This document shows positions 4,614 to 45,117 of a stretch of DNA of 60,892 nucleotides, piece after piece. The stretch lies in IMG/VR virus record IMGVR_UViG_3300045988_133230; one strand, written 5' to 3'. Under the pieces are notes generated by a model that searched no databases, had not been told where the DNA came from, and was given only the letters and a program-made list of their open reading frames with translations. This DNA is from a virus. Taxonomy: Duplodnaviria > Heunggongvirae > Uroviricota > Caudoviricetes. The translations under genes were made by a program, and so were the position numbers. Numbering within the stretch: position 1 is the stretch's first letter; each line of letters opens with the position of its first letter.

Positions 4614-5108
4614 ATGGCTGGAACGGCGGGGCGTTCCGGGCGTCGCCCCAAGCCAACGGCGCGCAAGGCGCTGGCCGGAAACCCCGGCAAGCGAGCCCTG
4701 AATAAAGATGAACCTGTTTTTACGCCCATCAAAGGTGTTGAGCCACCGGAGTGGTTCGCTGAAGAAGATCTCCCTCTCGCCACGATCATGTGGCAACTGA
4801 CAACCAAAGAACTCTGCGGTCAGGGCCTGCTGTGCGTGACTGACCTCGCGGTGCTTGAGCGGTGGTGCGTGGCCTACGAGTTCTGGCGACGTGCCGTGAA
4901 AAATATTGCCATACAGGGCAACACCATCACCGGTGCAATGGGCGGCAGGGTCAAAAATCCGGAGCTGACCGCCAAAAAAGAACAGGAGTCCGAGATGAGC
5001 AGCACGGGGGCAATGCTCGGACTCGACCCCAGCAGCCGCCAGCGTCTGATTGGCCTGGCGGGGCAGAAGAAAGCCACTAACCCGTTTCTGAAAATCATCG
5101 AGTCATGA
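4614..5108 (+). CDS. terminase small subunit (P27-family like)
   Basis: Basic N-terminus [14 protein letters not shown]; AGGAG RBS 9 nt upstream of ATG 4614; overlaps large subunit start. Confidence 0.7.
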
Positions 5109-6838
5109 GCCGGAAATCTTACCCCAACGTAAATGCTGCCAATCAGTATGCCCGTGATGTTGTGCGCGGAAAGATTGTGGCCTGCCAGTTTGTGATTCAG
5201 GCCTGCCAGCGCCATCTTGATGACCTGATGGCGGAAAAAAGTAAGTCGTTTCGTTACCGCTTCGACAAGGACCTGGCTGAACGGGCCGCCAAATTTATTC
5301 AGCTGTTGCCGCACACCAAGGGTGAGTGGGCATTCAAGAGGATGCCCATCACGCTGGAGCCGTGGCAGCTATTTGTGGTCTGCTGTGCGTTTGGCTGGGT
5401 CAATAAAGGGTCCCGGCTGCGCCGCTTCCGGGAGGTGTATACCGAAATCCCCCGTAAGAACGGCAAATCGGCAATCTCTGCCGGTGTTGCCCTGTATTGT
5501 TTTGCCTGTGATAACGAGTTTGGCGCGGAAGTGTATTCCGGTGCCACGACAGAGAAACAGGCGTGGGAAGTCTTTCGCCCGGCGCGACTGATGTGTAAAC
5601 GCACACCCATGCTGACGGAAGCGTTCGGGATTGAGGTTAACGCCTCAAACATGAATCGTCCGGAGGATGGCGCGCGGTTTGAACCGCTGATCGGTAACCC
5701 CGGTGATGGTTCATCACCCCACTGTGCGGTGGTGGATGAATATCACGAGCACGCCACCGATGCGCTTTACACCACGATGCTTACCGGGATGGGGGCGCGA
5801 CGTCAGCCACTGATGTGGGCCATTACTACTGCCGGGTACAACATTGAGGGGCCGTGCTACGACAAGCGACGGGAAGTTATCGAGATGCTCAACGGGTCGG
5901 TACCCAACGATGAACTGTTCGGGATCATCTATACCGTTGACGAAGGCGATGACTGGACCGACCCGCAGGTGCTGGAAAAAGCTAACCCGAATATTGGCGT
6001 GTCGGTTTATCGCGAATTTTTGTTAAGTCAGCAGCAGCGTGCGAAAAATAACGCCCGTCTGGCAAACGTCTTTAAAACAAAACACCTCAATATCTGGGTG
6101 TCGGCGCGTTCGGCGTATTTCAACCTGGTGAGCTGGCAGAGCTGCGAGGATAAATCACTGACTCTTGAGCAGTTCGAGGGGCAGCCGTGCATTCTGGCCT
6201 TTGACCTGGCGCGTAAGCTGGATATGAACAGCATGGCGCGACTTTATACCCGCGAGATTGACGGTAAAACGCATTACTACAGTGTGGCCCCGCGTTTCTG
6301 GGTACCGTATGACACGGTGTACAGCGTCGAGAAAAATGAAGATCGCCGGACAGCCGAACGCTTTCAGAAATGGGTGGAAATGGGCGTTCTGACCGTTACC
6401 GATGGTGCGGAGGTGGATTATCGCTACATCCTCGAGGAGGCCAAAGCGGCGAACAAAATCAGTCCGGTCAGTGAGTCACCCATCGACCCCTTCGGGGCGA
6501 CCGGGTTGTCACATGACCTTGCTGATGAAGACCTGAACCCCATCACTATCATTCAGAACTACACCAACATGTCCGACCCGATGAAAGAGCTGGAAGCGGC
6601 AATTGAATCGGGGCGCTTTCATCATGATGGCAATCCCATCATGACCTGGTGTATTGGCAACGTGGTCGGCAAAACCATTCCGGGTAACGATGATGTGGTG
6701 AAGCCCGTCAAAGAGCAGGCGGAAAACAAAATCGATGGTGCAGTTGCGCTGATTATGGCGGTTGGCAGAGCCATGCTGTACGAGAAAGAAGACACGCTGT
6801 CTGACCACATTGAGTCCTATGGGATCCGCTCGCTTTAA
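5105..6838 (+). CDS. terminase large subunit
   Basis: 577 aa; ATPase and nuclease regions typical of HK97-type large terminases; position between small subunit and portal. Confidence 0.85.
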
Positions 6839-12148: not shown

Positions 12149-12319
12149 ATGTTTGTCAAACCTGTTAAAGGGCGGTCAGTTCCTGACCCTGCCCGCGGCG
12201 ACCTTTTGCCCGCCGAAGGGCGAAATGTTGACGAGAACAACTACTGGCTGCGCCGTGAAGCAGCGGGTGATATCCGGCGCGTGAATAAAAAGGTGAATAC
12301 CGATGACGATAAGCTTTAA
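12149..12319 (+). CDS. small conserved protein preceding tail sheath
   Basis: 56-aa ORF (MFVKPVKGRSVPDP...) found by me, not in ORF track; GAGGA RBS; overlaps sheath start. Confidence 0.45.
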   Translation: MFVKPVKGRSVPDPARGDLLPAEGRNVDENNYWLRREAAGDIRRVNKKVNTDDDKL

Positions 12320-13799
12320 CACCATTCCGTCGAATACGCTGGTTCCGTTGTTTTATGCGGAAATGGATAACCAGGCGGCGAATACTGCACAGGACAGCGG
12401 GGCATCGTTGCTGATTGGTCACGCCAATAACGGTGCAGAGATTGTTGCCAACAGTCTGGTGTTGATGCCGTCGGCAGACTATGCACGCCAGATTTGTGGT
12501 GCGGGAAGTCAGCTGGCGCGTATGGTCGAGGCTTATCGCCAGACCGACCCGTTTGGCGAGCTGTATGTGATTGCCGTTCCGGAAGCCACAGGCGCGGCGG
12601 CAACGGTTACGCTGACGGTGACCGGAGCAGCAACCGAAACCGGCACGGTGAATGTTTATGTGGGACGTACCCGCGTGCAGGCACCGGTGACTAACGGCGA
12701 TAACGTCACGACGATTGCCAGCAGTATCCAGGATGCCATTAATGCCGTTCCGGCCCTGCCGTTTACGGCCTCATCTTCGGCAGGCGTGGTCACACTGACC
12801 GCGCGTCATAAGGGGCTTTGCGGGAATGAAATTCCTGTCAGCCTCAATTACTACGGCTTCGGTGGGGGCGAAGTGCTGCCAGCGGGCGTACAGATTGCCG
12901 TGGCGACGGGGACCGCCGGAACGGGCGCTCCGGTTCTCACCGGTGCGGTGGCTGCAATGGCGGATGAGCCGTTTGATTATATCGGTCTGCCGTTCAACGA
13001 CACGGCCTCCGTTAACACGCTGGTGACCGAGATGAACGATACCAGCGGTCGCTGGAGCTATGCGCGTCAGCTGTATGGTCATGTGTATACGGCAAAGATC
13101 GGCACGCTGTCAGAACTGGTGACCGCAGGTGACCAGTTTAACCAGCAGCACATCACCCTGGCGGGGTACGAAAAAGAGACCCAGACGCCTGCCGACGAGC
13201 TGGCGGCAAGCCGTACCGCCCGCGCAGCGGTGTTTATCCGCAACGATCCGGCACGTCCCACGCAGACCGGTGAGCTGGTGGGTATGTTGCCTGCGCCGAA
13301 GGGGAAACGGTTCACGATGACCGAACAACAGACCCTGCTGTCTCATGGCGTGGCAACGGCGTATGTCGAAAGCGGGGTACTGCGCATTCAGCGTGATGTC
13401 ACCACGTACAGGAAAAACGCTTACGGGGTTGCGGATAACAGCTACCTCGACAGCGAGACGCTGCATACCAGCGCGTATGTACTGCGCAAACTGAAATCCG
13501 TCATTACCAGTAAGTACGGGCGTCACAAGCTTGCCAGTGACGGTACCCGCTTTGGTCCCGGTCAGGCGATTGTCACCCCGGCGGTGATCAAAGGGGAACT
13601 GCTGGCAACCTACCGTCAGCTCGAGCGTGCGGGGATCGTGGAAAACTACGAACTGTTTAAGCAGTACCTGGTTGTGGAGCGTGATGCCAGCGATCCGAAC
13701 CGCCTGAACACGCTGTTCCCGCCTGACTATGTTAACCAGTTGCGTGTCTTTGCCGTGGTTAACCAGTTCCGTCTTCAGTATTCAGAGGAGTCTGCATAA
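12303..13799 (+). CDS. contractile tail sheath protein (Mu-type)
   Basis: 498 aa, followed by tube, chaperone with frameshift, tape measure: Mu-like tail order. Confidence 0.8.
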   Translation: MTISFNTIPSNTLVPLFYAEMDNQAANTAQDSGASLLIGHANNGAEIVANSLVLMPSADYARQICGAGSQLARMVEAYRQTDPFGELYVIAVPEATGAAATVTLTVTGAATETGTVNVYVGRTRVQAPVTNGDNVTTIASSIQDAINAVPALPFTASSSAGVVTLTARHKGLCGNEIPVSLNYYGFGGGEVLPAGVQIAVATGTAGTGAPVLTGAVAAMADEPFDYIGLPFNDTASVNTLVTEMNDTSGRWSYARQLYGHVYTAKIGTLSELVTAGDQFNQQHITLAGYEKETQTPADELAASRTARAAVFIRNDPARPTQTGELVGMLPAPKGKRFTMTEQQTLLSHGVATAYVESGVLRIQRDVTTYRKNAYGVADNSYLDSETLHTSAYVLRKLKSVITSKYGRHKLASDGTRFGPGQAIVTPAVIKGELLATYRQLERAGIVENYELFKQYLVVERDASDPNRLNTLFPPDYVNQLRVFAVVNQFRLQYSEESA

Positions 13800-23718: not shown

Positions 23719-24387
23719 TCATATTGGCGTTATTAGTTCGGCGCCCTGATTTTTCACATTCCCGACGGCACGCGTTACGGCGTGCCATATAAATTTATCA
23801 GCCGGTACAACACCGTCGGCTGCAATTTCCGCTGCTTCTTTCCCTCCAACATCCTGCCTCATCCATTCACGCGCGGCTTCCGGTAGCAGTACCAGTGGTC
23901 GTCTGTCGTGAATATCAACCAGTCCTTTGTCAGCTGCAGCTGTAACTATCAGGAAACCTTCTGCTTCATCTCCACGTTCGAATGGTGTGCTGCCGATCGC
24001 CGCCATAAAAATCGGCTGACCGTCTGCCCGGTGAATAAAGTAGGGTTGTTTTTGGTCGCCTTCCTTTTTCCACTCATACCATCCATCAGCAAAGCAAATT
24101 GCGCGGCCATGCTGCCAGAGTGGTTTAAACATTCTGCTGGTGGCAGCAGTTTCAGACCGTGCATTAATGAGCGGCGGTTTATCCCACCAACCGGGGGCGT
24201 ATCCCCAGATAACTGGATCAAGATGCAACTGCTCATCACGTTCGCTCAGAAGCAGAACTTTTGTTCCTGGCGCTACGTTGAATCTTCCGATGGGTTCTGG
24301 ATCGTATGGAATATCGCGTTCTGATTCATCAGCGAGAAGGGCAAGATAATCTTCACGGGTCATTGACTGTGAAAAGCGTCCACACAT
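23719..24387 (-). CDS. SOS response-associated peptidase (SRAP/YedK family)
   Basis: 222 aa starting MCGRF with catalytic Cys2; family features recognisable by eye. Confidence 0.8.
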   Translation of the reverse strand: MCGRFSQSMTREDYLALLADESERDIPYDPEPIGRFNVAPGTKVLLLSERDEQLHLDPVIWGYAPGWWDKPPLINARSETAATSRMFKPLWQHGRAICFADGWYEWKKEGDQKQPYFIHRADGQPIFMAAIGSTPFERGDEAEGFLIVTAAADKGLVDIHDRRPLVLLPEAAREWMRQDVGGKEAAEIAADGVVPADKFIWHAVTRAVGNVKNQGAELITPI

Positions 24388-24784: not shown

Positions 24785-25600
24785 TCACATACGGATAAAA
24801 TTTTTTCTATTGATTTTGTCTCTATCAGAGCCATAAATGATGGTTGCAAAAAAACGACCTAATTCAAGATGGTGGAAGTGATTATCTTTTGCTTGAACTG
24901 TCATTGAGTCTAATATGTTATAGATGCATTCTATGATATGAATAACTAATAAAGTGCGATAACCAGCAAGCATTTCACTTCTTTTAAGTAAATAATTTAA
25001 ATCCCCTGCAGAGTTTATATGGTTTCTGTCTTCATCATAATATCCAAGCACATAGCATGGCAGTGTTTCACCATAGCTTCGGTATTGCTCGCATTTTTTA
25101 TCAATTATATTTTTTTGTCTTTTTGTTAATATTTTATCGTAAATGCTCTTATCGATTTCATTATACCATTGCTTCATGGGATCATTGTCGTTGTCATTAG
25201 TAATGAAATCAATATTACTATATCTTGATGAATTTGCAAAATTAGTTAACAACTCCATCACTCTGTAGTGAATTTCATTTAAGCCAGAGGGAGAATCAAC
25301 TCTCTCAATGACTAGGTTGAATAACTTGCTTAAGTTATGACCGTAATCTCTTAATTTTTTGCGTGATGTATATTTTCCATTTTTATTATAATCATCAAGC
25401 ATAAGGCAAAGTTTCATAAGCCTTTCTAATCCTAAACTGATGCCGGATAATGCTTGAAAATACAATCCTCTACTTGCAAAATTTGCTTTCCTTAGGGAAG
25501 TGAGCCCTATGCCTAATAATTGTCTTGAAAAGTCAACCTCATCAACAAATCTTCTGTATTTTTCATCCATAAAAACCTCAGTCAGCCAATTAATATTCAA
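24785..25600 (-). CDS. hypothetical 271-aa protein (cargo, possible abortive-infection type)
   Basis: AT-rich ORF lying between the two 122-bp direct repeats; no recognisable motif. Confidence 0.55.
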   Translation of the reverse strand: MNINWLTEVFMDEKYRRFVDEVDFSRQLLGIGLTSLRKANFASRGLYFQALSGISLGLERLMKLCLMLDDYNKNGKYTSRKKLRDYGHNLSKLFNLVIERVDSPSGLNEIHYRVMELLTNFANSSRYSNIDFITNDNDNDPMKQWYNEIDKSIYDKILTKRQKNIIDKKCEQYRSYGETLPCYVLGYYDEDRNHINSAGDLNYLLKRSEMLAGYRTLLVIHIIECIYNILDSMTVQAKDNHFHHLELGRFFATIIYGSDRDKINRKNFIRM

Positions 25601-25756
25601 GAATGATTTCTATAAAGAACTAATCTAGTTAAATCATCTGATGTAATTAGTATTACAATACCATCAGACGACATTGAAGCAGTATTGTGCCTTATCTACC
25701 CTATGTACGTCCATTGATAAAAATCTGCGCTTTTCGCAGTGGGGTCAATCGTAAGC

Positions 25757-25879
25757 TAATTTCCCCATTGCTTCCCCGTTCAGAAAACAGGCAAAAAAAA
25801 CCAGCCGTAACAGGCTGGTTCTTCGAGGATTTTTGGTCAGCACGAGAGGATTTGAACCTCCGCCCCCGACACCCCATAG
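25757..25879. repeat. 122-bp direct repeat copy 2, includes tRNA-Pro-like 3' fragment 25834-25879
   Basis: See copy 1; four point or length differences. Confidence 0.85.
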
Positions 25880-26073
25880 CGGTGATCTACCTTCTCATCA
25901 AGGGTAACCATGTGCCAGAAGCAGCCCTTGCGCACATTGGATGGGTATCAAATAATGAAGTAGGTCAACTTTATTAAATAAAATTGTGTTGGTTCAGATG
26001 ATCGAATGGGAATGAATAGTTTATTACTTTTGGTGACCGCAAGCGCGATCACCTTCGATTTGGTGGCAATTAC

Positions 26074-27042
26074 CTAGAATGATGCACAATCTTTAAGCTC
26101 TTTTTCTAGTTGTTCAACCAAGTCACAGCATTTTTTGATAACATCTTTAACTGACTCTGAATCTAACTTATGAAAATTACCATTTTTTGTTTTACCTGCT
26201 CGATGAACTAAGTCATGCCTAATTAACACGCTTTTATAAACTTCTGTGAAAACAGGGAATTTAATACCAAAGGTATCTCGATACATGCCACTTACTTTTG
26301 GCAGATTATGATAAAGAACACTCTTCATAGACTCTATCGCTTGAGACTCTATTTGTTCATGCCTTATAAATAATTCAGAAAGTAAGAATTTTTCTGTATT
26401 GTAATCTTTGAAGGTTTCAACAAAATTTCTCAAATTAGTTTGGCTACCATGAATTAGGGAAATAAATCTGTCACATAAATATGTTTCCAAGGAAGTTATT
26501 GTATTGGCATATAGCATATACGACATTTGTATTTGTAAAGTGCTATCAATTTTTAACTGAGCATCATTTAGTTTTATGGCGTTCTGCATACTATTTTGGA
26601 ATGTCATATAGACATCTCGTTCAGATAGCGTTCGATCATCAGAGTACTGCATATCAATAACATCTAGAATGCGCTGTTCAATTAATGAAGGTCTATTCAA
26701 CTGTAATATATCTATAGTCGCATGTCCTCGCTCAGTTAAACCTTCTAAATATCCATTTTTATTTTGTTTTATATGTTCTGAAAAACTTTCATTTAAAGGA
26801 TTTAGAAGTAATGGTTTGCCATTTTCATCGAGAGGAAACTGATCTTTTTTAATCATGCTACATGCCTTACAAGCGATGAGCAGGTTGTCTGTAGCATCTT
26901 GGAAGTCAGTATACTTTGATTTTGGGAAAAAACGATCAACATCCGCCATCAATGGTTCATAAAGTTTAGTGCCACAGTAAGCACATTGATGCTTAAACTT
27001 CTCCCATAGTTCAAGTTTAAACGTTTTATAATTCTTATTCAT
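26074..27042 (-). CDS. HNH-domain protein, 322 aa (N-terminal HNH-like nuclease, C-terminal unknown domain)
   Basis: CAYCG...DVDRFFPKSKY...NLLIACKACS resembles a Zn-finger HNH core; AT-rich; located where e14 carries mcrA. Confidence 0.6.
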   Translation of the reverse strand: MNKNYKTFKLELWEKFKHQCAYCGTKLYEPLMADVDRFFPKSKYTDFQDATDNLLIACKACSMIKKDQFPLDENGKPLLLNPLNESFSEHIKQNKNGYLEGLTERGHATIDILQLNRPSLIEQRILDVIDMQYSDDRTLSERDVYMTFQNSMQNAIKLNDAQLKIDSTLQIQMSYMLYANTITSLETYLCDRFISLIHGSQTNLRNFVETFKDYNTEKFLLSELFIRHEQIESQAIESMKSVLYHNLPKVSGMYRDTFGIKFPVFTEVYKSVLIRHDLVHRAGKTKNGNFHKLDSESVKDVIKKCCDLVEQLEKELKDCASF

Positions 27043-27486: not shown

Positions 27487-27651
27487 CTGCTGCGCCATAT
27501 GGGCTGGACTGAAGCCGCAGACCTGATTGTTAAAGGTATGGAAGGCGCGATCAACGCGAAAACCGTAACCTATGACTTCGAACGTCTGATGGAAGGCGCT
27601 AAACTGCTGAAATGTTCAGAGTTTGGTGACGCGATCATCAAGAACATGTAA
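27487..27651 (+). pseudogene. icd: icd 3' fragment (duplicated attachment segment, icdC-like)
   Basis: Encodes ...[53 protein letters not shown], the C-terminus of isocitrate dehydrogenase; upstream sequence is unrelated and AT-rich. Confidence 0.85.
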
Positions 27652-33035: not shown

Positions 33036-33899
33036 TCATTTCGCATCTACAATAAATAACCTGTTTATCTGGCCTTTTTTAACAGTAGCCTTTGCGGTTA
33101 TAGTGAATACTGCAGATGGATCACCTTTGGTTGATATATATGCACTAAGAGCTCTAATATACGGGTTATTCTTCTTTCCTGCAGCTGGATCGCTAATTTC
33201 AGCAGTGATTCTCTTTTTTGAGTCATCACCATCTAAAATTATTTTAGCTGTCATATTTTGTGCATCAAATTCTGTAAGAAAAGCACGATACTCACGAAGA
33301 CCGAGAACTTCATCATCATCAAGCCTATCAATTTCAGCTTTATCTCTCTCGTTAACTTTTAGAAGGCAGCCGTCAACATTTGTTGCAACACTTATCTGAT
33401 CGCAAGTATTACCAATAGGTGATACTGCCTGCCTTACAGAGGGGCGAAGCTCTACAGCCATTCGGTCAATCAAAGAGATCAACTTATCAATGGTTCCAGC
33501 ATCCTTGTTTCCTAGTGCCTCTATGGCCTTTTCAAGTGACTGCTGCAAAGCTTTCATTTCATCTTTCTTGTTAGAATTTCTCGCAAAAATATATTGTAGT
33601 ATTGCGCCAAGTATAGTTGCGGCGATCCCCGAGAACAACTGGTTCTGAGTGGCGAAGTTAAGAACTGCTTCAAGAGTAAAGCAGTTAGCTTTTGCTTCGC
33701 GTGCGTAAACCTTAACTTCCTGATAATTAATGTATTTACTATATTTTTGTGTAACAGAGAAAGAAGCTGCTGTTGAGAGAACTTTAGAAAAACCCTTTAG
33801 GGATTCTCCTAGGCAGTTCAAATCTATTTCATGATTTAAAGCATCTTTTCCGTCATACCTAAGAGAGATTTTTATATCCTGTAAAGCGTCACAATCCAT
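33036..33899 (-). CDS. hypothetical 287-aa protein downstream of cI (rexAB slot)
   Basis: AT-rich ORF 66 bp downstream of cI stop, same strand, own terminator; one internal hydrophobic segment. Confidence 0.55.
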
Positions 33900-33965: not shown

Positions 33966-34658
33966 TTATCCATGTTTCCTGTACGTCTGGGGCATGCTCC
34001 CAATAACCTTACCGAAGATGAACACCCGGTTCATCTCGTCTTTCTCGATCGGGTCCCACGGTGAGTAGCTCTTGTTATCAGAGATAACCAGCAGCTTATC
34101 CTTCATCATTTGCAGGCGCTTTACATGGGCGGTGTCGTCGTACAGAAACGCATAGATGCCATCACCGTCGAAAGATTTAACCGTGATATCAACGAACAGA
34201 AGATCACCAGGTTCAATCGTTCCTGACATGCTGTCACCGCGTACGTTAATGATGCGGATATTTTCTGCCTTCCTACCATCGAACATGTGACGAGCATCGT
34301 CAAACGAGTACTCAACCGAGCGTAGAACTTCTACAAACTCACGGTTGATGACTCCCGGCCCGGCACTCACTTCTATATCAAGAACGTCAATCTTGAAGTA
34401 TTTGGGATGGTTGGCAGTAGGCTTCCCTAATTGTTGACCGTCATTTCTCATCGGGCCTATGCCTGATGAGAGCCACTCTGTTCGAACACCCAATGCATTA
34501 GCTATTTCAACAATTTTTGTTGAGCCGCGCGCGTTGCCGCTTGTCAGTCTCCAGATTGTGGGTTGAGCTACGCCAGACGCCTTTGCAAGAGCGCCTTGAG
34601 ACATTCCAGATTGTTCCATCGCTAGGTTTAAGCGATCAGCAAGAGTTTCTTTTTTCAT
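33966..34658 (-). CDS. cI: CI-type repressor (HTH plus S24 LexA-like peptidase domain)
   Basis: HTH (QGALAKASGVAQPTIWRL), Ser-Lys dyad (GDSM...K); start placed at ATG 34658 (ORF track TTG at 34694). Confidence 0.85.
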   Translation of the reverse strand: MKKETLADRLNLAMEQSGMSQGALAKASGVAQPTIWRLTSGNARGSTKIVEIANALGVRTEWLSSGIGPMRNDGQQLGKPTANHPKYFKIDVLDIEVSAGPGVINREFVEVLRSVEYSFDDARHMFDGRKAENIRIINVRGDSMSGTIEPGDLLFVDITVKSFDGDGIYAFLYDDTAHVKRLQMMKDKLLVISDNKSYSPWDPIEKDEMNRVFIFGKVIGSMPQTYRKHG

Positions 34659-34768
34659 AAGTTTTAATTTATACGCTTGCGTATTGATGGTCAAAACACG
34701 TTTTGCTATTGCTGTGATTAATACGCATTGCTATTATTTATTCATTGTAATACCAATAGGAATTAATA
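34659..34768. promoter_or_regulatory. OR / pRM-pR divergent control region
   Basis: 14-bp perfect palindrome ATACGCTTGCGTAT (34671-34684) and GCTATT(G) repeats at 34705 and 34730 between divergent cI and cro. Confidence 0.6.
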
Positions 34769-37280: not shown

Positions 37281-37579
37281 CGGGCAAAGAGGCAATTATT
37301 CATTACCTGGGGACTCATAAGAACTTCTGTGCGCAGGACGTTGCCGCGGTAACAGGCGCAACCGTAACCAGCATAAATCAGGCTGCGGCTAAAATGGCGC
37401 GGGCAGGAATCCTGGTCGTTGATGGTAAGGTCTGGCGAACGGTGTATTATCGGTTCGCTACCAGAGAAGAACGGGAAGGAAAGGTGAGCGCGAATTTGAT
37501 TTTTAAGGAGTGTCGCCAGAGTGCCGCGATGAAACGGGTATTGAGGGTATATAAAAGAACATCAATGGGTACACAATGA
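37277..37579 (+). CDS. ren: Ren
   Basis: MTGKEAIIHYLGTH... matches lambda Ren. Confidence 0.8.
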   Translation: MTGKEAIIHYLGTHKNFCAQDVAAVTGATVTSINQAAAKMARAGILVVDGKVWRTVYYRFATREEREGKVSANLIFKECRQSAAMKRVLRVYKRTSMGTQ

Positions 37580-37646
37580 TGAAACAGGTGAGTTGAGTTC
37601 AAACTGTAGTACAATTCTCTCCAGTTTGAACAGGAAAGAATATGCT

Positions 37647-37979
37647 ATGAACCCTTATATTTATCTTGGTGGTGCAATACTTGCAGAGGTCATTGGTACA
37701 ACCTTAATGAAGTTTTCAGAAGGTTTTACACGGTTATGGCCATCTGTTGGTACAATTATTTGTTATTGTGCATCATTCTGGTTATTAGCTCAGACGCTGG
37801 CTTATATACCTACAGGGATTGCTTATGCTATCTGGTCAGGAGTCGGTATTGTCCTGATTAGCATACTATCATGGGGATTTTTCGGCCAACGGTTGGACCT
37901 GCCAGCCATTATAGGCATGATGTTGATTTGTGCCGGTGTGTTGGTTATTAATTTATTGTCACGAAGCACACCACATTAA
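37647..37979 (+). CDS. emrE: small multidrug resistance efflux protein EmrE
   Basis: 110 aa MNPYIYLGGAILAEVIGTTLMKFSEGF... matches EmrE (a DLP12 prophage gene in K-12); start at internal ATG 37647. Confidence 0.9.
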   Translation: MNPYIYLGGAILAEVIGTTLMKFSEGFTRLWPSVGTIICYCASFWLLAQTLAYIPTGIAYAIWSGVGIVLISILSWGFFGQRLDLPAIIGMMLICAGVLVINLLSRSTPH

Positions 37980-38234
37980 AAATAATTTATTTTTAAACGA
38001 CTAAAATATGGAGGTTCGTATATTTGTATGGGCCTCGTTTTATGCTTTTTGTTAATGTCTTTAGTTTTTATTCATTCTTTTGAACTTTCAAGATTATGGT
38101 GTAAGAAAATTGCAATACGATTATTGTTGTATATTCAAGATAATGTGACCTTAATTGTCTTTTTAAATAAAAATTAAACAAAAATCATATCTCACCACTA
38201 AGGTTTATAAAAGCATACTTTAGCAGGTGTCACC

Positions 38235-39761
38235 ATGAAAAAAGCCATAGCATATATGCGATTTTCATCACCAGGTCAGATGTCTGGTGATTCATTAAAC
38301 CGCCAGAGAAGGCTTATTACTGAATGGCTAAAGGTAAATAGTGATTATTACCTTGATACCGTAACGTATGAAGATTTGGGGTTAAGCGCATTCAATGGAA
38401 AGCATGCACAATCAGGAGCTTTTTCGGAATTTTTAGATGCTATAGAACATGGTTACATATTGCCAGGGACTACATTGTTAGTTGAAAGTCTGGACAGACT
38501 TTCAAGAGAAAAAGTCGGTGAAGCGATTGAGCGTCTGAAATTGATTTTGAATCACGGTATTGATGTTATAACTCTTTGCGATAATACAGTCTATAATATA
38601 GACTCATTGAATGAGCCATATTCATTAATAAAAGCCATACTTATAGCACAAAGGGCAAATGAAGAAAGCGAGATAAAGTCAAGTCGGGTTAAATTATCAT
38701 GGAAGAAAAAACGGCAGGATGCACTGGAATCAGGCACGATTATGACGGCGTCTTGTCCGAGATGGCTCTCATTGGATGACAAAAGAACAGCTTTTATTCC
38801 AGACCCCGACAGGGTGAAAACGATTGAGCTAATTTTTAAACTCAGGATGGAAAGGCGATCATTGAATGCAATAGCTAAGTATTTAAATGATCATGCTGTA
38901 AAAAATTTTTCAGGAAAAGAAAGTGCATGGGGGCCTTCTGTAATTGAAAAATTATTAGCGAATAAAGCTCTGATAGGTATATGCGTACCTTCATATCGTG
39001 CAAGAGGGAAAGGGATAAGTGAAATCGCTGGCTATTATCCCAGAGTCATATCAGATGATTTGTTTTACGCTGTACAGGAAATTCGGTTGGCACCTTTTGG
39101 TATTAGCAATAGTAGCAAGAATCCTATGCTAATAAATCTACTTCGAACAGTTATGAAGTGTGAGGCTTGTGGTAATACCATGATTGTTCATGCGGTATCT
39201 GGACGTTTGCATGGCTATTATGTTTGTCCGATGAGAAGATTACATCGATGTGACAGGCCATCAATAAAAAGAGATTTGGTTGATTATAATATCATTAATG
39301 AATTGCTTTTTAATTGTAGCAAAATTCAACCAGTTGAAAACAAGAAAGATGCTAATGAAACTTTAGAGTTAAAAATTATTGAGCTTCAGATGAAAATTAA
39401 TAATTTAATCGTTGCATTGTCTGTCGCGCCTGAAGTTACCGCTATAGCAGAGAAAATAAGACTATTAGATAAGGAATTACGAAGGGCTTCGGTATCATTA
39501 AAAACTTTGAAGAGTAAAGGGGTGAGTTCACTTGGTGATTTTCATGCTATTGATTTAACTAGTAAAAATGGGCGAGAGCTATGTCGTACACTTGCCTATA
39601 AAATATTCGAAAAAATTATAATTAATACAGATAATAAAACCTGTGATATCTATTTTATGAATGGCATTGTTTTTAAACACTATCCTTTAATGAAAGTAAT
39701 ATCCGCCCAGCAGGCGATAAGCACTCTTAAATATATGGTTGATGGTGAGATTTATTTTTGA
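38235..39761 (+). CDS. ybcK: large serine recombinase (YbcK-like)
   Basis: Resolvase N-terminal catalytic region (YMRFSSPGQ...SLDRLSR), Cys-rich zinc ribbon; AT-rich. Confidence 0.75.
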   Translation: MKKAIAYMRFSSPGQMSGDSLNRQRRLITEWLKVNSDYYLDTVTYEDLGLSAFNGKHAQSGAFSEFLDAIEHGYILPGTTLLVESLDRLSREKVGEAIERLKLILNHGIDVITLCDNTVYNIDSLNEPYSLIKAILIAQRANEESEIKSSRVKLSWKKKRQDALESGTIMTASCPRWLSLDDKRTAFIPDPDRVKTIELIFKLRMERRSLNAIAKYLNDHAVKNFSGKESAWGPSVIEKLLANKALIGICVPSYRARGKGISEIAGYYPRVISDDLFYAVQEIRLAPFGISNSSKNPMLINLLRTVMKCEACGNTMIVHAVSGRLHGYYVCPMRRLHRCDRPSIKRDLVDYNIINELLFNCSKIQPVENKKDANETLELKIIELQMKINNLIVALSVAPEVTAIAEKIRLLDKELRRASVSLKTLKSKGVSSLGDFHAIDLTSKNGRELCRTLAYKIFEKIIINTDNKTCDIYFMNGIVFKHYPLMKVISAQQAISTLKYMVDGEIYF

Positions 39762-40110
39762 GTAATAATCACTTTTTCAACCGTGCTATGGTATGAAAGT
39801 AAAGTAACTACTATGATATTAACTATCTTGAACGAAGCGCCCTGAGCTATAGTTTTACTATAGGCACTGCCACTGGATGTTGGCATTCTCGCTCTAGTAG
39901 CTCAACAATACCCAATCACAAAACAATTCACTGATAACAAACTTTGTGCACGTGCTTAGTTATGGCGAACAGGTGATGTTAACCTCCTGCCAGAATGCCA
40001 CTCCACTTCATTAAGTATCTGAGCACCGAGAGGCTGGTCACGCCCCCATTAAAAATAATTTCTTTTGAATCGAGTGAAATAGGTTAGCCCGCATAAGTGC
40101 GGGCTGCTTT

Positions 40111-41154
40111 TTACAGGTCAGCGTTTGTTTTTTGTTGTTGGGTAGCGGTTTTTATGGGGGTTCCCAGGTTTTTAGTAAACCACTCAACAACTCTGTTTAT
40201 AATAATTGGCTGATACCATGTATTATCACCATGCTCAGCCCCTTCTACCAGAACGTACTCAGCGTTATCGCCGTTCTTCTTCAACATCCTGAATAGTTTG
40301 GCGCTTTGCTCAGGTGAAACCAGAGTGTCTTTGCTACCATGCATAATAAGAAATGGGGGTTTTACTCCTTTCATATGTCCGATTGGACTGGCGTTTAGCG
40401 CTTTTTCTTTTGACGCTGTGATGGGGGCTCCCGCAAAATTTCTGAATGCAGGGCCATTGATCATTAAGGCTTCGGTTACGGCAGGAGAGCGATGAACCTC
40501 CTGCACTGATTCAGGGAACCCCTCGCCAATATTCAACAAGTCAGAAATCCCATAAAGTGTGGCAACTGCCTGAACATCTGAGGATTGCTGAAGAAAGTCA
40601 CCTTTATCAAAGGTTTTGTCACCATTTGTAGTTCCCATCATCTGAGCAAGCCATCCACCGGCAGAGTCACCCAGAACTCCGATTCTTTGAGGATCAATCC
40701 CATAATTGCTGGCATGCTCTCTCAGGTAACGTATTGCAGCTTTTCCATCCTCAACTGGTGCTGGAAATGTATCAGGAATTGTTCTGTATTCTACAGCGGC
40801 CACAACAAAACCAGCTTCTGCCAGAGCCATTCTCATTTCAATAAATTTGTCATGTTCAGAAGACATGAATCCGCCGCCGGGATAATAAATAATGGCTGGT
40901 TTTAAATCATTTGTTCGCGGGACAAGAACTGACATGTGAAGCTGTCTGACAGAACGAGTTCCTTTTATCTGGGAATAAACAACATCACCAATGAGATCGA
41001 CCTGGTTTCTGGTCGGTGAAACACTAATGATATCTGCACCCGGGGTGTAACCAGGAAGATTAGTCTGGACAGGTGTTGCACAACTCCCGACCGACATGGC
41101 CATTGACATACCATACAATAGTGTTGCAGATGATAATATCTTGTTAATTTTCAT
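40111..41154 (-). CDS. alpha/beta-hydrolase esterase/lipase, predicted lipoprotein
   Basis: Signal peptide ending VGSC, oxyanion motif YPGGGF, nucleophile elbow GDSAGG. Confidence 0.7.
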   Translation of the reverse strand: MKINKILSSATLLYGMSMAMSVGSCATPVQTNLPGYTPGADIISVSPTRNQVDLIGDVVYSQIKGTRSVRQLHMSVLVPRTNDLKPAIIYYPGGGFMSSEHDKFIEMRMALAEAGFVVAAVEYRTIPDTFPAPVEDGKAAIRYLREHASNYGIDPQRIGVLGDSAGGWLAQMMGTTNGDKTFDKGDFLQQSSDVQAVATLYGISDLLNIGEGFPESVQEVHRSPAVTEALMINGPAFRNFAGAPITASKEKALNASPIGHMKGVKPPFLIMHGSKDTLVSPEQSAKLFRMLKKNGDNAEYVLVEGAEHGDNTWYQPIIINRVVEWFTKNLGTPIKTATQQQKTNADL

Positions 41155-41601
41155 GTTTTACATGCCTTGACTTATCGGATGAAATTCTCTTACTGAATTT
41201 AACGGCAGTTTAATAGCCGTACAACTCGTGGTAGCCAGGGAAATATCCCAGTCGTGGTTAAGGTTGTACTTGACGGCTATTATTTCAACAATGCTTAAAG
41301 TGAGAGCTTAAGGTTATGCGTATGTTTTACAGTCCGAGTAGATTCTGACCAATAGCTTCTTTGTATAATTCTGTCAGAAATAAATCTTGGCTTGCATGAA
41401 GTTTGAGACCTTATCTTGTTTGATTATGAATAATCAATTCGCCATAATTGTATCACCGGAGCCTGAACAACTCCGGTGACTTCTGCGCTAAACGGGGACG
41501 TTTATGCGCACACACAATCCAAACTCTCTTCTCCCTTCACAGATGCAGAAATGCACCTGCGTTTTTTTGCATCCAGCGTCTGACCTCTGTGGAGGTGAAG
41601 C

Positions 41602-42057
41602 GTGAACCTACCACAAGATGGCATCAAACTGCATCGCGGTAACTTCATCGCTATCGGCCAGCAGATCCAGCCTTATCTGGAGAACGGAAAATGCTTTCGC
41701 ATGGTGCTTAAACCGTGGCGTGAGAAACGCAGTCTTTCCCAGAATGCACTCAGCCACATGTGGTACAGCGAAATCAGTGAATACCTCATCAGCAGGGGGA
41801 AATCGTTCGCTACCGCAGCATGGGTAAAAGATGCTCTCAAACACACATACCTCGGTTATGAAACCAAGGACCTGGTTGATGTCGTAACCGGCGAAATCAC
41901 TACTATCCAGTCGTTACGCCATACCTCCGATCTCGATACCGGAGAGATGTATGTCTTCCTGTGTAAGGTTGAAGCCTGGGCGGTGAATATTGGCTGCCAC
42001 CTGACTATTCCGCAGAGCTGCGAGTTCCAGCTGCTGCGCGACAAGCCGGAGGCGTAA
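41602..42057 (+). CDS. ybcN: YbcN-like nin-region protein
   Basis: 151 aa in nin region upstream of ninE. Confidence 0.6.
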
Positions 42058-42228
42058 TGGCTACACCGCTTATTCGTGTCATGAACGGACACATCTACAG
42101 AGTACCAAATCGTCGTAAGCGTAAGCCTGAGCTGAAACCATCCGAAATACCAACACTGCTCGGATATACCGCCAGCCTGGTTGATAAAAAATGGTTGCGA
42201 CTGGCAGCAAGGAGGAATCATGGCTGAT
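42058..42228 (+). CDS. ninE: NinE
   Basis: 56-aa [27 protein letters not shown]... found by me (below ORF-track size cutoff). Confidence 0.6.
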
Positions 42229-42510
42229 TTGAGAAAAGCAGCACGTGGTCGGGAATGCCAGGTAAGAATCCCTGGCGTATGTAATGGCAATCCTGAAACG
42301 TCAGTACTGGCACATATCCGGCTGGCTGGATTGTGCGGCACCGGTATTAAACCGCCAGACCTTATTGCCACCATTGCATGTTCTGACTGTCACGACGAGA
42401 TCGACCGTCGCACGCATTTTGTTGACGCTGGATATGCAAAAGAATGCGCGCTGGAAGGTATGGCGAGAACGCAGGTTATCTGGCTGAAAGAGGGGGTAAT
42501 TAAGGCGTGA
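42220..42510 (+). CDS. ybcO: YbcO-like Cys-rich nin-region protein
   Basis: 96 aa from ATG 42220; Cys/His cluster. Confidence 0.65.
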
Positions 42511-42869
42511 ATACTTACCATATCACACTACCCTGGCCGCCGAGCAATAATCGCTATTACCGCCATAATCGTGGGCGCACGCACGTCAGCGCAGAGGGGC
42601 AAGCATACCGCGATAATGTCGCCCGAATCATTAAAAACGCAATGCTGGATATCGGCCTGGCTATTCCTGTGAAAATCAGCATTGAGTGCCACATGCCGGA
42701 TCGCCGTCGCCGTGACCTTGATAATCTGCAAAAGGCCGCTTTTGACGCACTCACCAAAGCAGGTTTCTGGCTGGATGATGCTCAGGTCGTTGATTACCGC
42801 GTTGTGAAGATGCCCGTTACCAAAGGTGGGAAGCTGGAGCTGACCATCACCGAAATGGGGAATGAATGA
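42507..42869 (+). CDS. rusA: Holliday junction resolvase RusA
   Basis: 120 aa [18 protein letters not shown]... Confidence 0.9.
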
Positions 42870-43006
42870 TATTTGAGTTTTATATGGCAGAACGTCTTCG
42901 CCACCGCTGGATGCGCCTGCGCTTATATCGTTTTCCTGGTTCTGTTTTGGCCGATTACCGGATACTGAAGAATTACGCCAAAACACTGAAAGGAGCATGT
43001 GTATGA
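42866..43006 (+). CDS. ylcG: YlcG-like small protein
   Basis: 46-aa ORF overlapping rusA stop (ATGA). Confidence 0.45.
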
Positions 43007-43091
43007 AGTCAGAGATAACAATCGACTAATACTGTTTTGTTGATTTTTGCTTGTAATTGGCGTTCTGGCCTAATTTTTGTGGAGTAAGTTG

Positions 43092-43475
43092 ATGCGTGAT
43101 GTTCAGATGGTTCTTGAGCGTTGGGGGGCGTGGGCAGCTAATAATCATGAAGATGTGACCTGGTCGTCCATTGCTGCCGGTTTTAAGGGATTAATTCCTT
43201 CAAAAGTAAAATCTCGCCCGCAATGTTGTGACGATGACGCGATGATCATTTGCGGGTGCATGGCCCGTCTGAAAAAGAACAACAGCGATTTACACGATTT
43301 ATTAGTAGATTATTATGTATGTGGTATGACATTCATGTCACTGGCAAGTAAGCATTGCTGCTCGGATGGTTATATCGGGAAAAGGTTACAGAAGGCTGAG
43401 GGCATAATTGAAGGGATGTTAATGGCATTAGATATCCGGTTAGATATGGATATCGTTGCTAATAATTCTAATTGA
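43092..43475 (+). CDS. Q: late antiterminator Q (QuuD-like)
   Basis: 127 aa from ATG 43092 with GGAG RBS; Cys-rich zinc-binding region. Confidence 0.85.
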
Positions 43476-43612
43476 TATGCAATTGTTTACTAAAAGTTAT
43501 TAAAAATGGGGCGTGGAAACGCCCCCAAAATAAAGGGTAATATATAACAGAAGGTTTATATAGTAAGAAGCAAGGTAGTGCTTCTAAAGGAAGTGGCTTG
43601 AGGGCTCCACTT

Positions 43613-43655
43613 ATATGTTGCGGAGGCAAAGCCTCCCGCAACATATCTTTTTCGT
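43613..43655 (+). terminator. intrinsic terminator downstream of Q
   Basis: TGTTGCGGAGGC-AAA-GCCTCCCGCAACA hairpin followed by TATCTTTTTCG. Confidence 0.6.
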
Positions 43656-43663
43656 AAGTCAGA

Positions 43664-44746
43664 TTAGAACTGATAAACCAGACCTACAGCGACGATGTCG
43701 TCGGTATCAATACCAGCTGTTTTGGTAAACTTACTATCGTCAATTAAGTTGATTTTGTAATCAACAAAAGTGGACATGTTTTTATTAAAGTAGTAAGTAG
43801 CACCGACATCGACATACTTGACTAAGTCTCGGTCACCATGAACACCAAGGTCTTTACCTTTTGACTGAAGGTAAGCAACAGATGGGCGCAGACCGAAGTC
43901 AAACTGATATTGTGCTACTGCTTCAAAGTTTTGTGCTTTGTTTGCAATATGGTTATTACCAAAAACGGTCATATTCTGAGTTTCAGAATATGTGGTAGCC
44001 AGATAGATATTGTTCGCATCATATTTCAGGCCTGCAGCCCATACTTCCGCATTTTTGCCGGAGGCATTGAATTTGCTCTTACCATAGGCGACCTGACCGT
44101 CAGTGCGATCTGATTTAGCATAGGTTGCACCCACGCCGAATCCTTCATACTCATAAGTAGTGGAGAAACCGAAACCATCACCATTGGCTTCAGTTACGTC
44201 AGTGCGGTCATTTTTACCCTGATACTGAGCAGCAAAGTTCAGGCCATCGACCAGACCAAAGAAGTCGTTGTTACGATAAGTTGCAACACCAGTAGTGCGA
44301 CCAGTCATGAACACATCTGTTTGGGTCCAGGTATCACCACCGAATTCTGGCAGAACGTCAGTCCACGCACCGATGTCGTATGCTACACCGTAGTTACGGC
44401 CGTAATCGATTGAGCCGTAATCACCAAATTTCAGGCCTGCAAATGCAAGACGGGTTTTGTCTTTGGAAGAACCTTGAGATTCAGCACGGTTGCCTTTGAA
44501 TTCATATTCCCACTGACCGAAACCAGTCAGTTGATCGTTGATTTGGGTTTCACCTTTGAAGCCAAGACGGGCATAAGTAGTATCACCATCATCTGCATCA
44601 TTAGAGGAGAAGTAGTGCTTGGCATTAACTTTCCCGTATAGATCCAGCTTGTTACTGTCTTTATTATAAATTTCAGCTGCCTGAGCAGACATCGCCATCA
44701 GTACTGATGCAGCTACAGCAGAAATTGCCACTGTTAATTTTTTCAT
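43664..44746 (-). CDS. outer-membrane porin (OmpC/NmpC/Lc family)
   Basis: Signal peptide [23 protein letters not shown], beta-barrel porin sequence ending ...GLVYQF; start at ATG 44746. Confidence 0.85.
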
Positions 44747-45117
44747 TGTACGCCCTTTTTTTGAACTATTATTAAAAAATGATGTCACTGCGCGATAAAT
44801 ATTCATCTAATCAATGTGATTATTTCAAGATGTAAGTTTTAGTTTCTCATTTAATTTGTGAAGTAGATCTCTATTTTTATCTGAACCTTTTCTATCTAAT
44901 CCTATTCATGGCTCTTGTTTGAACGAAAATAAATCTATTAGCTAATTTATATTAATGGCACTTATTTATAAGCGCTCTATAATTCTTTAGCTTAATTTAA
45001 ACAAACTAAAAATAACATCGGAAATTATTCATTGGTTATTTGTTGAAGTTTTCTTATGTATTTGTGGTGGTGTTTTGAACACTCGGTGGCATTCTCACAA
45101 ATATCATTTAGTAGTTT

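Follow-up and report, generated by a model that had tools for sequence, protein, structure and literature searches.

What does an exported ester hydrolase do in the early-right region of a lambdoid phage? The question is raised by a gene on the minus strand at positions 40111–41154 of a 60,892-nucleotide stretch of viral DNA (IMG/VR record IMGVR_UViG_3300045988_133230), the whole of which we refer to as the window. The gene lies in a DLP12-like lambdoid prophage of E. coli integrated at icd. A first-pass annotation, made from the letters of the window, had described its product as a lysogenic-conversion esterase lipoprotein, a candidate deacetylase or lipase acting in the envelope, and had assigned it no substrate. 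Our analyses lead us, with a confidence a little better than even, to a more specific reading: that the gene encodes a Sec-exported, probably outer-membrane-anchored hydroxycinnamoyl esterase (feruloyl/chlorogenate type) of the BD-FAE/Dickeya lineage, carried by the phage as cargo. We infer the substrate class, the localization and the activity of the promoter in the lysogen from sequence and genomic context. The enzyme is of an ordinary type in an unusual carrier and does not represent a new kind of system.

The open reading frame (ORF) begins with ATG, ends with a TAA stop at 40111–40113 and encodes 347 amino acids. The ORF list holds no longer in-frame alternative, and the same coding sequence (CDS) is found in RefSeq as WP_000700204.1 ("alpha/beta hydrolase") and in the annotation of phage 4A7. 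That this is a coding gene and not a chance ORF is supported by its match to the Pfam family BD-FAE (PF20434; E = 5.5e-45), by 2587 homologues at E <= 1e-10 and by a ratio of non-synonymous to synonymous substitution rates (dN/dS) of 0.09 versus the plasmid paralogue. BD-FAE is the best family for the protein (153.9 bits versus a cut-off of 26.8), with the match covering positions 7–214 of the 215 in the profile. In addition, the N-terminal half matches Abhydrolase_3 (81 bits, passing but well below BD-FAE) and the C-terminal half matches Peptidase_S9, a hybrid signature that is also described in the BD-FAE paper (PMC8165983).

The predicted fold is consistent with this assignment. An AlphaFold model built with 32 homologues has a predicted local distance difference test score (pLDDT) of 89.1 and a predicted template modeling score of 0.85, with residues 1–27 disordered (pLDDT <50), and the top Foldseek matches in the PDB are 6nkf (template modeling score, TM-score, 0.75 query-normalized and 0.86 target-normalized), 6xyc, 6tkx and 6mly. 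Closest among solved structures is 6nkf, the goat rumen metagenome "lipase" Lip_vut4 (32% identical, with a phmmer E of 1e-37). This entry stems from structural genomics; its crystallized chain, unlike the prophage protein, does not have a lipobox N-terminus, and we know of no published substrate profile for it. The 6mly entry, the Bacteroides eggerthii GH43-CE protein, is also among the nearest solved structures. The founding member of PF20434, BD-FAE itself (6tkx/6xyc), is a bifunctional feruloyl/acetyl-xylan esterase from a polysaccharide utilization locus (PUL) of a member of the Bacteroidota (PMC8165983). It shares the Pfam family with the prophage esterase, is matched by Foldseek with E ~1e-20 (TM-score 0.67 query and 0.80 target) and has an exactly aligned triad, but it is only ~24–25% identical and is without the ~45-residue conserved N-terminal extension. 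The contexts differ as well, since BD-FAE resides in a xylan PUL and neither in a prophage nor in a decarboxylase operon of the kind described below.

The catalytic residues can be placed with precision. The nucleophile elbow reported initially is present as G162-D-S164-A-G-G167 (40654..40671, minus strand, as are all codons of the enzyme given here), with Ser164 aligning to Ser128 of 6tkx_A. The codons for Asp276 (HGSKD motif, 40327..40329) and His308 (AEHGD motif, 40231..40233) complete the triad, and in the phmmer alignment S164/D276/H308 fall on 128/237/269 of 6tkx_A, the crystallographic triad of BD-FAE being Ser128/Asp237/His269 (PMC8165983). All three residues are invariant in an alignment of 32 homologues spanning 40–80% identity, which is the conserved triad that the first-pass annotation had led us to look for. 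Its "HGGG-type" oxyanion motif requires a correction: the three glycines are there but the classical histidine is not. Residues 91–96 read Y-P-G-G-G-F, position 92 is Pro across the orthogroup, and the HGGG of family IV hormone-sensitive lipase (HSL) esterases is therefore lacking. The loop P92-G-G-G-F96 (40867..40881) aligns with the oxyanion loop of BD-FAE; the same 32 homologues show no variation at G93, G95 or F96 and >=90% conservation of G94. Judged by profile, motifs and signal peptide, the protein is an intact, exported Ser-Asp-His alpha/beta-hydrolase and a member of the BD-FAE family.

Family membership says little about the substrate, for which the relatives and their gene neighborhoods are more informative. 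Homologues of 60–72% identity are frequent among Enterobacterales and alpha- and beta-proteobacteria associated with plants (Dickeya, Pectobacterium, Pantoea, Kosakonia, Rhizobium and leaf Sphingomonas) and also in gut taxa (Sutterella, Parasutterella, Desulfovibrio, Bacteroides/Phocaeicola and Helicobacter). A neighbor-joining tree groups the prophage protein with a sister clade of lipobox-bearing proteins, which comprises our homologues P0002 (80% identical to the prophage esterase), P0003 and P0005 (74%) as well as a 76%-identical copy carried by the E. coli IncF plasmid pSCU-105-1. Wherever their context is known, the genes of this clade lie ~10–35 nt downstream of a phenolic acid decarboxylase (PAD) gene (PF05870), and where the upstream flank is present (locus L002 and the IncF plasmid, the latter interrupted by IS3) a divergent LysR regulator precedes the pair. 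An esterase directly behind the decarboxylase of free ferulic and p-coumaric acid is what would be expected of a hydroxycinnamoyl esterase. These LysR-PAD-esterase operons, in which the esterase is co-transcribed with PAD and LysR is divergent, share 74–80% identity and the lipobox type with the prophage esterase, which differs in standing alone in its cassette; as far as our literature search showed, they are uncharacterized. The plasmid locus (L090; NZ_CP051739.1 134576–136724) comes from a conjugative IncF plasmid of E. coli from a healthy human; its order is LysR–phenolic acid decarboxylase–esterase, its LysR gene is broken by IS3 and its esterase has the lipobox S-T-G-C.

We surveyed the neighborhoods of the orthogroup more widely, in 80 species-level loci. 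PAD-esterase adjacency occurred in nine of them, scattered over the orthogroup: Serratia, Mangrovibacter, two Symbiopectobacterium, two Azospirillum, Aeromonas, a proteobacterial metagenome-assembled genome and Pedobacter (Bacteroidota). The only other partner to recur was a flavocytochrome reductase, and no broadly conserved operon partner was found in the 80 loci beyond PAD/LysR (nine loci) and these reductases (six loci). In the latter six, all from gut anaerobes (L031, L042, L045, L047, L076 and L081), an FAD_binding_2 flavoprotein with multiheme cytochrome c partners is encoded one or two genes away from the orthologue. The taxa represented are Desulfovibrio, Maridesulfovibrio, Parasutterella, Sutterella and Burkholderiales; the cytochromes are of the c3 type, and a sigma-54 activator is present in two of the loci. 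This module could be a periplasmic respiratory reductase able to use the released phenolic acid. Periplasmic reductases of this sort include cinnamate-type respiratory reductases.

A further line of evidence is the deposited name of a relative. Dickeya aquatica SLM61953 (our P0079), which is 66% identical over 94% of the length, belongs to the same orthogroup in the tree and is 343 residues long compared to 347, was deposited as "Ferulate esterase", as was SLM61950, a 47%-identical paralogue encoded 3 kb from it. The authors of the D. aquatica genome name exactly two ferulate esterases, FaeD and FaeT. Our comparison to these Dickeya enzymes (CAZy CE10) was made via SLM61953 only. FaeD is reportedly inducible by ferulate via FaeR and leaves the cell through the Out type II system. 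In D. dadantii, FaeD is an Out-secreted feruloyl esterase (PMC9007343). SLM61953 and the prophage esterase both have a signal peptide, the N-terminal segment LPGYTxGAxV, the PGGGF loop, the GDSAGG elbow, the triad and the [DN]A[NS]L tail. SLM61953 differs in having a signal-peptidase-I type signal (..SALA|AD) with no lipobox and in being chromosomal and clustered with a LysR regulator, a major facilitator superfamily transporter and the second paralogue, whereas the E. coli prophage copy is phage-borne and has no adjacent regulator. Together, the PAD linkage in relatives, the "Ferulate esterase" label and the characterized carbohydrate, feruloyl and acetyl-xylan esterases among the relatives narrow the substrate, which the first-pass annotation had left blank, to what are probably plant hydroxycinnamate (perhaps acetyl) esters.

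The lipoprotein signal reported in the first-pass annotation is also predicted by our analyses. Residues 1–24 (41083..41154) form a signal peptide with an MKINK n-region, a hydrophobic core and the lipobox S-V-G-S, followed by codon 25, TGT (41080..41082), the Cys of which is the predicted lipidated N-terminus of the mature protein and its sole cysteine. The sequence GMSMAMSVGS-C25, with K2 and K5 in the n-region, agrees with the PROSITE PS51257-type rule, {DERK}(6)-[LIVMFWSTAG](2)-[LIVMFYSTAGCQ]-[AGS]-C with the Cys at 15–35 and K/R in the first seven residues. Residue +2 is Ala and +3 is Thr. Under the E. coli Lol +2 rule, lipoproteins with no Asp at +2 go to the outer membrane, and since +2 is Ala rather than Asp, we predict delivery by Lol to that membrane. 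From the lipobox and this rule, then, the esterase is probably lipidated at Cys25 and anchored in the outer membrane. A 61-nt probe across codon 25 matched 681 of 5426 complete E. coli genomes; the context with TGT was found exactly in 677 of 682 E. coli records, and Cys25 is present in all 44 IMG/VR alleles. Within the sister clade, P0002, P0003, P0005 and the plasmid-borne esterase likewise have a lipobox Cys. The form in the prophage copy and this clade is [ST]-G-C or G-S-C, while the more distant orthologues mostly have signal-peptidase-I type signals (..AxA|) and no lipobox. By this distribution, the lipobox is a derived feature of the prophage copy and its sister clade. We also entertain, as a tentative idea, that the lipobox keeps the enzyme on the cell, possibly with surface display by type II secretion, a route taken by other secreted lipoproteins, in contrast to the Dickeya homologue, which is released.

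At the other end of the protein, the proteobacterial orthologues have a conserved C-terminal hexapeptide, [DN]-P-[DN]-A-[NS]-L, behind a variable linker. It corresponds to the last six codons of the gene (40114–40131); the allele in the window ends QQKTNADL and most E. coli alleles end QQNPNANL. The confidence of the model falls in this tail. A sorting or secretion signal and an active-site plug are possibilities for the hexapeptide.

A number of observations weigh against a lipidated hydroxycinnamoyl esterase. The prophage protein is only 24–32% identical to any protein that has been both biochemically characterized and solved, its oxyanion loop is YPGGGF compared to YGSAWF in BD-FAE, and the family is promiscuous, with feruloyl and acetyl esters for BD-FAE (PMC8165983) and "lipase" for 6nkf. 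The name of SLM61953 is its depositor's annotation; this protein may be FaeD or FaeT, and neither these two gene names nor the protein accessions occur in the supplements of the D. aquatica preprint. The prophage copy has been separated from PAD and LysR, and the role of the esterase may have shifted with their loss. Regarding localization, the lipobox V-G-S-C is non-canonical at -2, and two database variants, P0001 and P0004, have Tyr in place of the lipobox Cys (TGT to TAT). These are independent sequences: P0001 represents the E. coli protein in clustering at 90%, whereas P0004 is a 75%-identical metagenomic homologue. We considered whether the lipobox might therefore be specific to certain alleles and rejected this, as the exact context with TAT had no match among the E. 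coli records. Lastly, expression in lysogens would depend on what appears to be a weak consensus promoter.

The leading alternative is that the protein is a periplasmic short-chain carboxyl or acetyl esterase of broad specificity (acetyl-xylan, pectin acetyl or tributyrin type), acting on small esters or acetylated oligosaccharides with no preference for hydroxycinnamates; this is plausible but the less likely reading, and we give it perhaps one chance in a handful or slightly better. It draws on the facts that BD-FAE also deacetylates birchwood xylan (PMC8165983), that the structural neighbors were deposited as "Acetyl xylan esterase" (6xyc), GH43-CE (6mly) and lipase (6nkf), and that there is weak NCBIfam similarity to acetyl esterase, PaeX and AxeA1, together with the source name "acetyl esterase/lipase". 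However, every NCBIfam equivalog considered (Aes, PaeX, AxeA1, LipQ and others) scored far under its cut-off, with 57.5 bits of 389 for Aes, 47.3 of 550 for PaeX and 42 of 700 for AxeA1, and the HSL subfamily models GTSAG_HSLs (54.8 of 380) and GESAG (47.5 of 430) were also below theirs. Moreover, the sampled loci showed neither glycoside hydrolases nor a PUL around the esterase, and the recurrence of the PAD linkage across distant taxa, along with the Dickeya label, favors hydroxycinnamates.

We next consider the esterase as phage cargo. In the near-identical region of E. coli CU42ET-1 the gene order is int, xis, exo/bet/gam, cI, cro, O, P, ren, emrE, ylcJ, ybcK (recombinase), the alpha/beta hydrolase on the opposite strand, ylcH, ybcN, ninE, ybcO, rusA, ylcG, Q, porin, lysis and terminase, which places the gene between ybcK and ylcH; its location on the reverse strand of the early-right region is as first described. 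Homology to the DLP12 prophage of K-12 (blastn) covers 37366–39800 and resumes at 41419–43705; the gap is a 1618-bp cargo cassette (39801..41418) in which the esterase is the only CDS, antisense to the early-right operon, and which contains no regulator gene. The cassette has a GC content of 43% compared to 50% for the prophage. It replaces 1813 bp with ybcL-ybcM at the same insertion point in K-12 (NC_000913.3 570470–572282). Like the esterase cassette, ybcL-ybcM specifies an exported protein unrelated to phage propagation, but it is unrelated in sequence and oriented the other way. The junction between ybcK and ylcH-ybcN is a polymorphic cargo slot, holding ybcL-ybcM in 3258 and the esterase cassette in 681 of the 5426 complete genomes. 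The esterase is thus a moron, or lysogenic-conversion cargo: a non-phage gene between conserved phage modules that differs from what related phages carry at the same place. No PAD remnant was found in the window by tblastn, and DNA homology to the PAD-operon copies is confined to the esterase CDS.

That the esterase is both prophage cargo and exported upholds part of the original proposal of a lysogenic-conversion esterase; nothing that we found points to its other part, an envelope target for a deacetylase or lipase. An envelope-editing role of this kind, in which de-O-acetylation of O-antigen, capsule or peptidoglycan, or hydrolysis of lipid, would alter receptors or immune recognition, has in its favor that a probably outer-membrane-anchored enzyme would be in the right compartment and that other envelope-related cargo is nearby, namely the porin gene at 43664–44806 and, in some phages, an inverse-autotransporter adhesin. 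We nevertheless regard it as improbable. No homologue with such a role was found, and the sampled orthologues from outside the E. coli prophage lineage, which belong to plant-associated and gut bacteria, have ordinary chromosomal or plasmid surroundings and not envelope-biosynthesis genes as neighbors. In addition, the viral members of the orthogroup are essentially those of one E. coli phage lineage, and PADLOC gave no match for the esterase. To our knowledge, the phage receptor-destroying deacetylases described so far are virion tailspike domains with an SGNH fold. A role in defense was also examined and found no support, as PADLOC was empty for both the esterase and YbcK; in PHROGs the protein is assigned as "esterase" in the category "other".

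The distribution of the cassette and its alleles indicates that the gene is retained. Besides the 681 complete E. coli genomes (about one in eight), the whole cassette is present in eight deposited phage genome records at 99.3–99.4% identity, these being 4A7 (twice, LR595864.1 and NC_049946.1), Lambda_4C10, D2, 1W, 3W, PhiR47_2 and Perceval, and the esterase is carried by 44 IMG/VR contigs. Carriers include the commensal strain SE15 and, judged by the UniProt entry name A0A0H3EIG2_ECO8N, NRG 857C, which is an adherent-invasive strain. The upstream region is 98–100% conserved in each of the 44 viral loci and the nin genes accompany the esterase there, while the downstream side differs: it is ybcK in 13, emrE directly in some, of which we examined L099 and L103, and, in a third arrangement (L115, L125 and L130 examined), a 1302-aa inverse-autotransporter adhesin, for at least three left-hand contexts overall. 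The allele in the window differs from that of phage 4A7 by five synonymous and no non-synonymous substitutions, dN/dS was 0.09–0.10 versus the plasmid and metagenomic paralogues (0.09 versus the plasmid paralogue), and C25, S164, D276 and H308 are invariant in the 44 IMG/VR alleles. These values point to strong purifying selection. The several contexts, the retention of the gene with its upstream region and the evidence of selection argue for functional cargo that moves among lambdoid backgrounds. They also make it very improbable that the gene is a functionless hitch-hiker, a fragment of a PAD operon traveling with the nin region, even though PAD and LysR are lost, the promoter is a weak consensus only, and there is a premature stop in one and a mutated start codon in two of the 44 viral alleles.

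In two of the arrangements the neighboring sequence deserves mention. The ylcJ-ybcK module of the window, which includes the large serine recombinase (38009–40043), lies between imperfect 38-nt AT-rich direct repeats (37971–38008 and 40044–40081, 84% identical). The phages of L099 and L103 are without this module, and their emrE is joined straight to the esterase cassette at a single copy of the repeat, which suggests that the recombinase module inserts or excises as one unit. In L115, L125 and L130, homology to the window stops 4 nt past the esterase stop codon, and the convergent neighbor is the 1302-aa adhesin (~5081–8989 in L125), an intimin/invasin-like inverse autotransporter with IAT_beta and Big_1/Invasin_D3 repeats and itself another colonization-type cargo gene.

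Lying antisense to the early-right operon, the esterase gene has to be served by a separate promoter, which must be within the cassette-specific upstream region (41155..41418, minus strand), as backbone homology to K-12 DLP12 resumes only at 41419. There is an AAGG Shine-Dalgarno sequence at 41165–41168, 10 nt upstream of the ATG, and a weak candidate extended -10 element (TG at 41286–41287, AATAAT at 41279–41284), identified by consensus match only. A promoter of its own would permit expression in the lysogen. The sole promoter-like -10 is overlapped by a perfect inverted repeat of 10 nt (TAATAGCCGT at 41211–41220 and ACGGCTATTA at 41273–41282, 52 nt apart), which could be an operator or an RNA stem. 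The upstream and leader region had no match in Rfam, and folding of the leader RNA was not significant (z = -1.8). Downstream of the gene, starting 4 nt past the stop codon, is a GC-rich hairpin of 8 bp (40085..40106; -14.8 kcal/mol, z = -2.8). It has the better T-run on the plus strand and a poor U-tract on the coding strand of the esterase, and probably acts as a terminator or insulator where the transcripts of ybcK and the esterase converge.

If the gene does encode a hydroxycinnamoyl esterase, the following course of events can be proposed. It was probably captured from a LysR-PAD-esterase operon, with subsequent loss of the decarboxylase and regulator. In the lysogen, an apparently weak promoter of its own would drive its transcription, in antisense orientation to the early-right operon. 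Its product would be exported by Sec, receive a diacylglyceryl group on Cys25, be cleaved by signal peptidase II and N-acylated, and be passed by Lol to the outer membrane. There Ser164, activated by His308 and Asp276, would attack the carbonyl of the ester while the PGGGF loop and the amide of Ala165 stabilize the oxyanion. The preferred substrates would be small hydroxycinnamoyl esters that reach the periplasm or the cell surface, such as chlorogenic acid, alkyl ferulates and coumarates, and feruloylated arabino-xylo-oligosaccharides, and the products would be free ferulic, p-coumaric or caffeic acid, with a side activity on acetyl esters possible, as for BD-FAE. The lysogen might benefit by gaining the sugar or quinate part of the ester, or through a change in the phenolic environment of the gut.

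Several other features of the window were noted. Adjoining the cI-like repressor gene (33966–34694) is a gene for a 287-aa DUF7946/DUF7947 protein (33036–33899, minus strand) in the slot that rexAB occupies in lambda, and owing to this position it is a candidate exclusion or defense gene. Homology to the icd-integrated CU42ET-1 prophage begins only at 27488, within the phage-borne 3' end of icd. Positions 1–27487 belong to a second, unrelated prophage that abuts the lambdoid one and has myovirus-type late genes. Its genes include those for the terminase large subunit (5105–6838), the tail sheath (12303–13799) and an SRAP/YedK-like protein (23719–24387), along with low-GC ORFs with no Pfam match at 326–1937 and 24785–27042.

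We return to the hydroxycinnamoyl esterase and what it may mean for E. coli. Three E. coli isolates from the human colon have been reported to hydrolyze chlorogenic acid (Couteau 2001, cited in PMC10340781). Our literature searches found no gene assigned to this activity, no paper on WP_000700204 and nothing relevant to a PAD-LysR-esterase operon or an E. coli prophage feruloyl esterase; a paper on E. coli MC3 has automatic CAZy CE1 labels only. It is conceivable, though we hold it as doubtful, that the cassette is the basis of the strain-variable cinnamoyl/chlorogenate esterase activity of colonic E. coli, which would make this a polyphenol trait spread by phage. Equally speculative is that the esterase serves as an auxiliary metabolic gene for plant phenolics on Bievrevirus-type phages (4A7, Lambda_4C10, Perceval and others).

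The protein is named just "alpha/beta hydrolase" or "esterase" in the databases, despite its gene being carried by about one in eight complete E. coli genomes. Should it prove to be a generic esterase, it would be an ordinary moron. If instead it hydrolyzes chlorogenate or feruloyl esters, a temperate coliphage would be equipped with a nutrient- or xenobiotic-processing enzyme in place of a toxin or defense system, and the cassette would represent a phage-mobilized gene for a gut-microbial activity on which the release of dietary hydroxycinnamic acids, and their bioavailability, depend.

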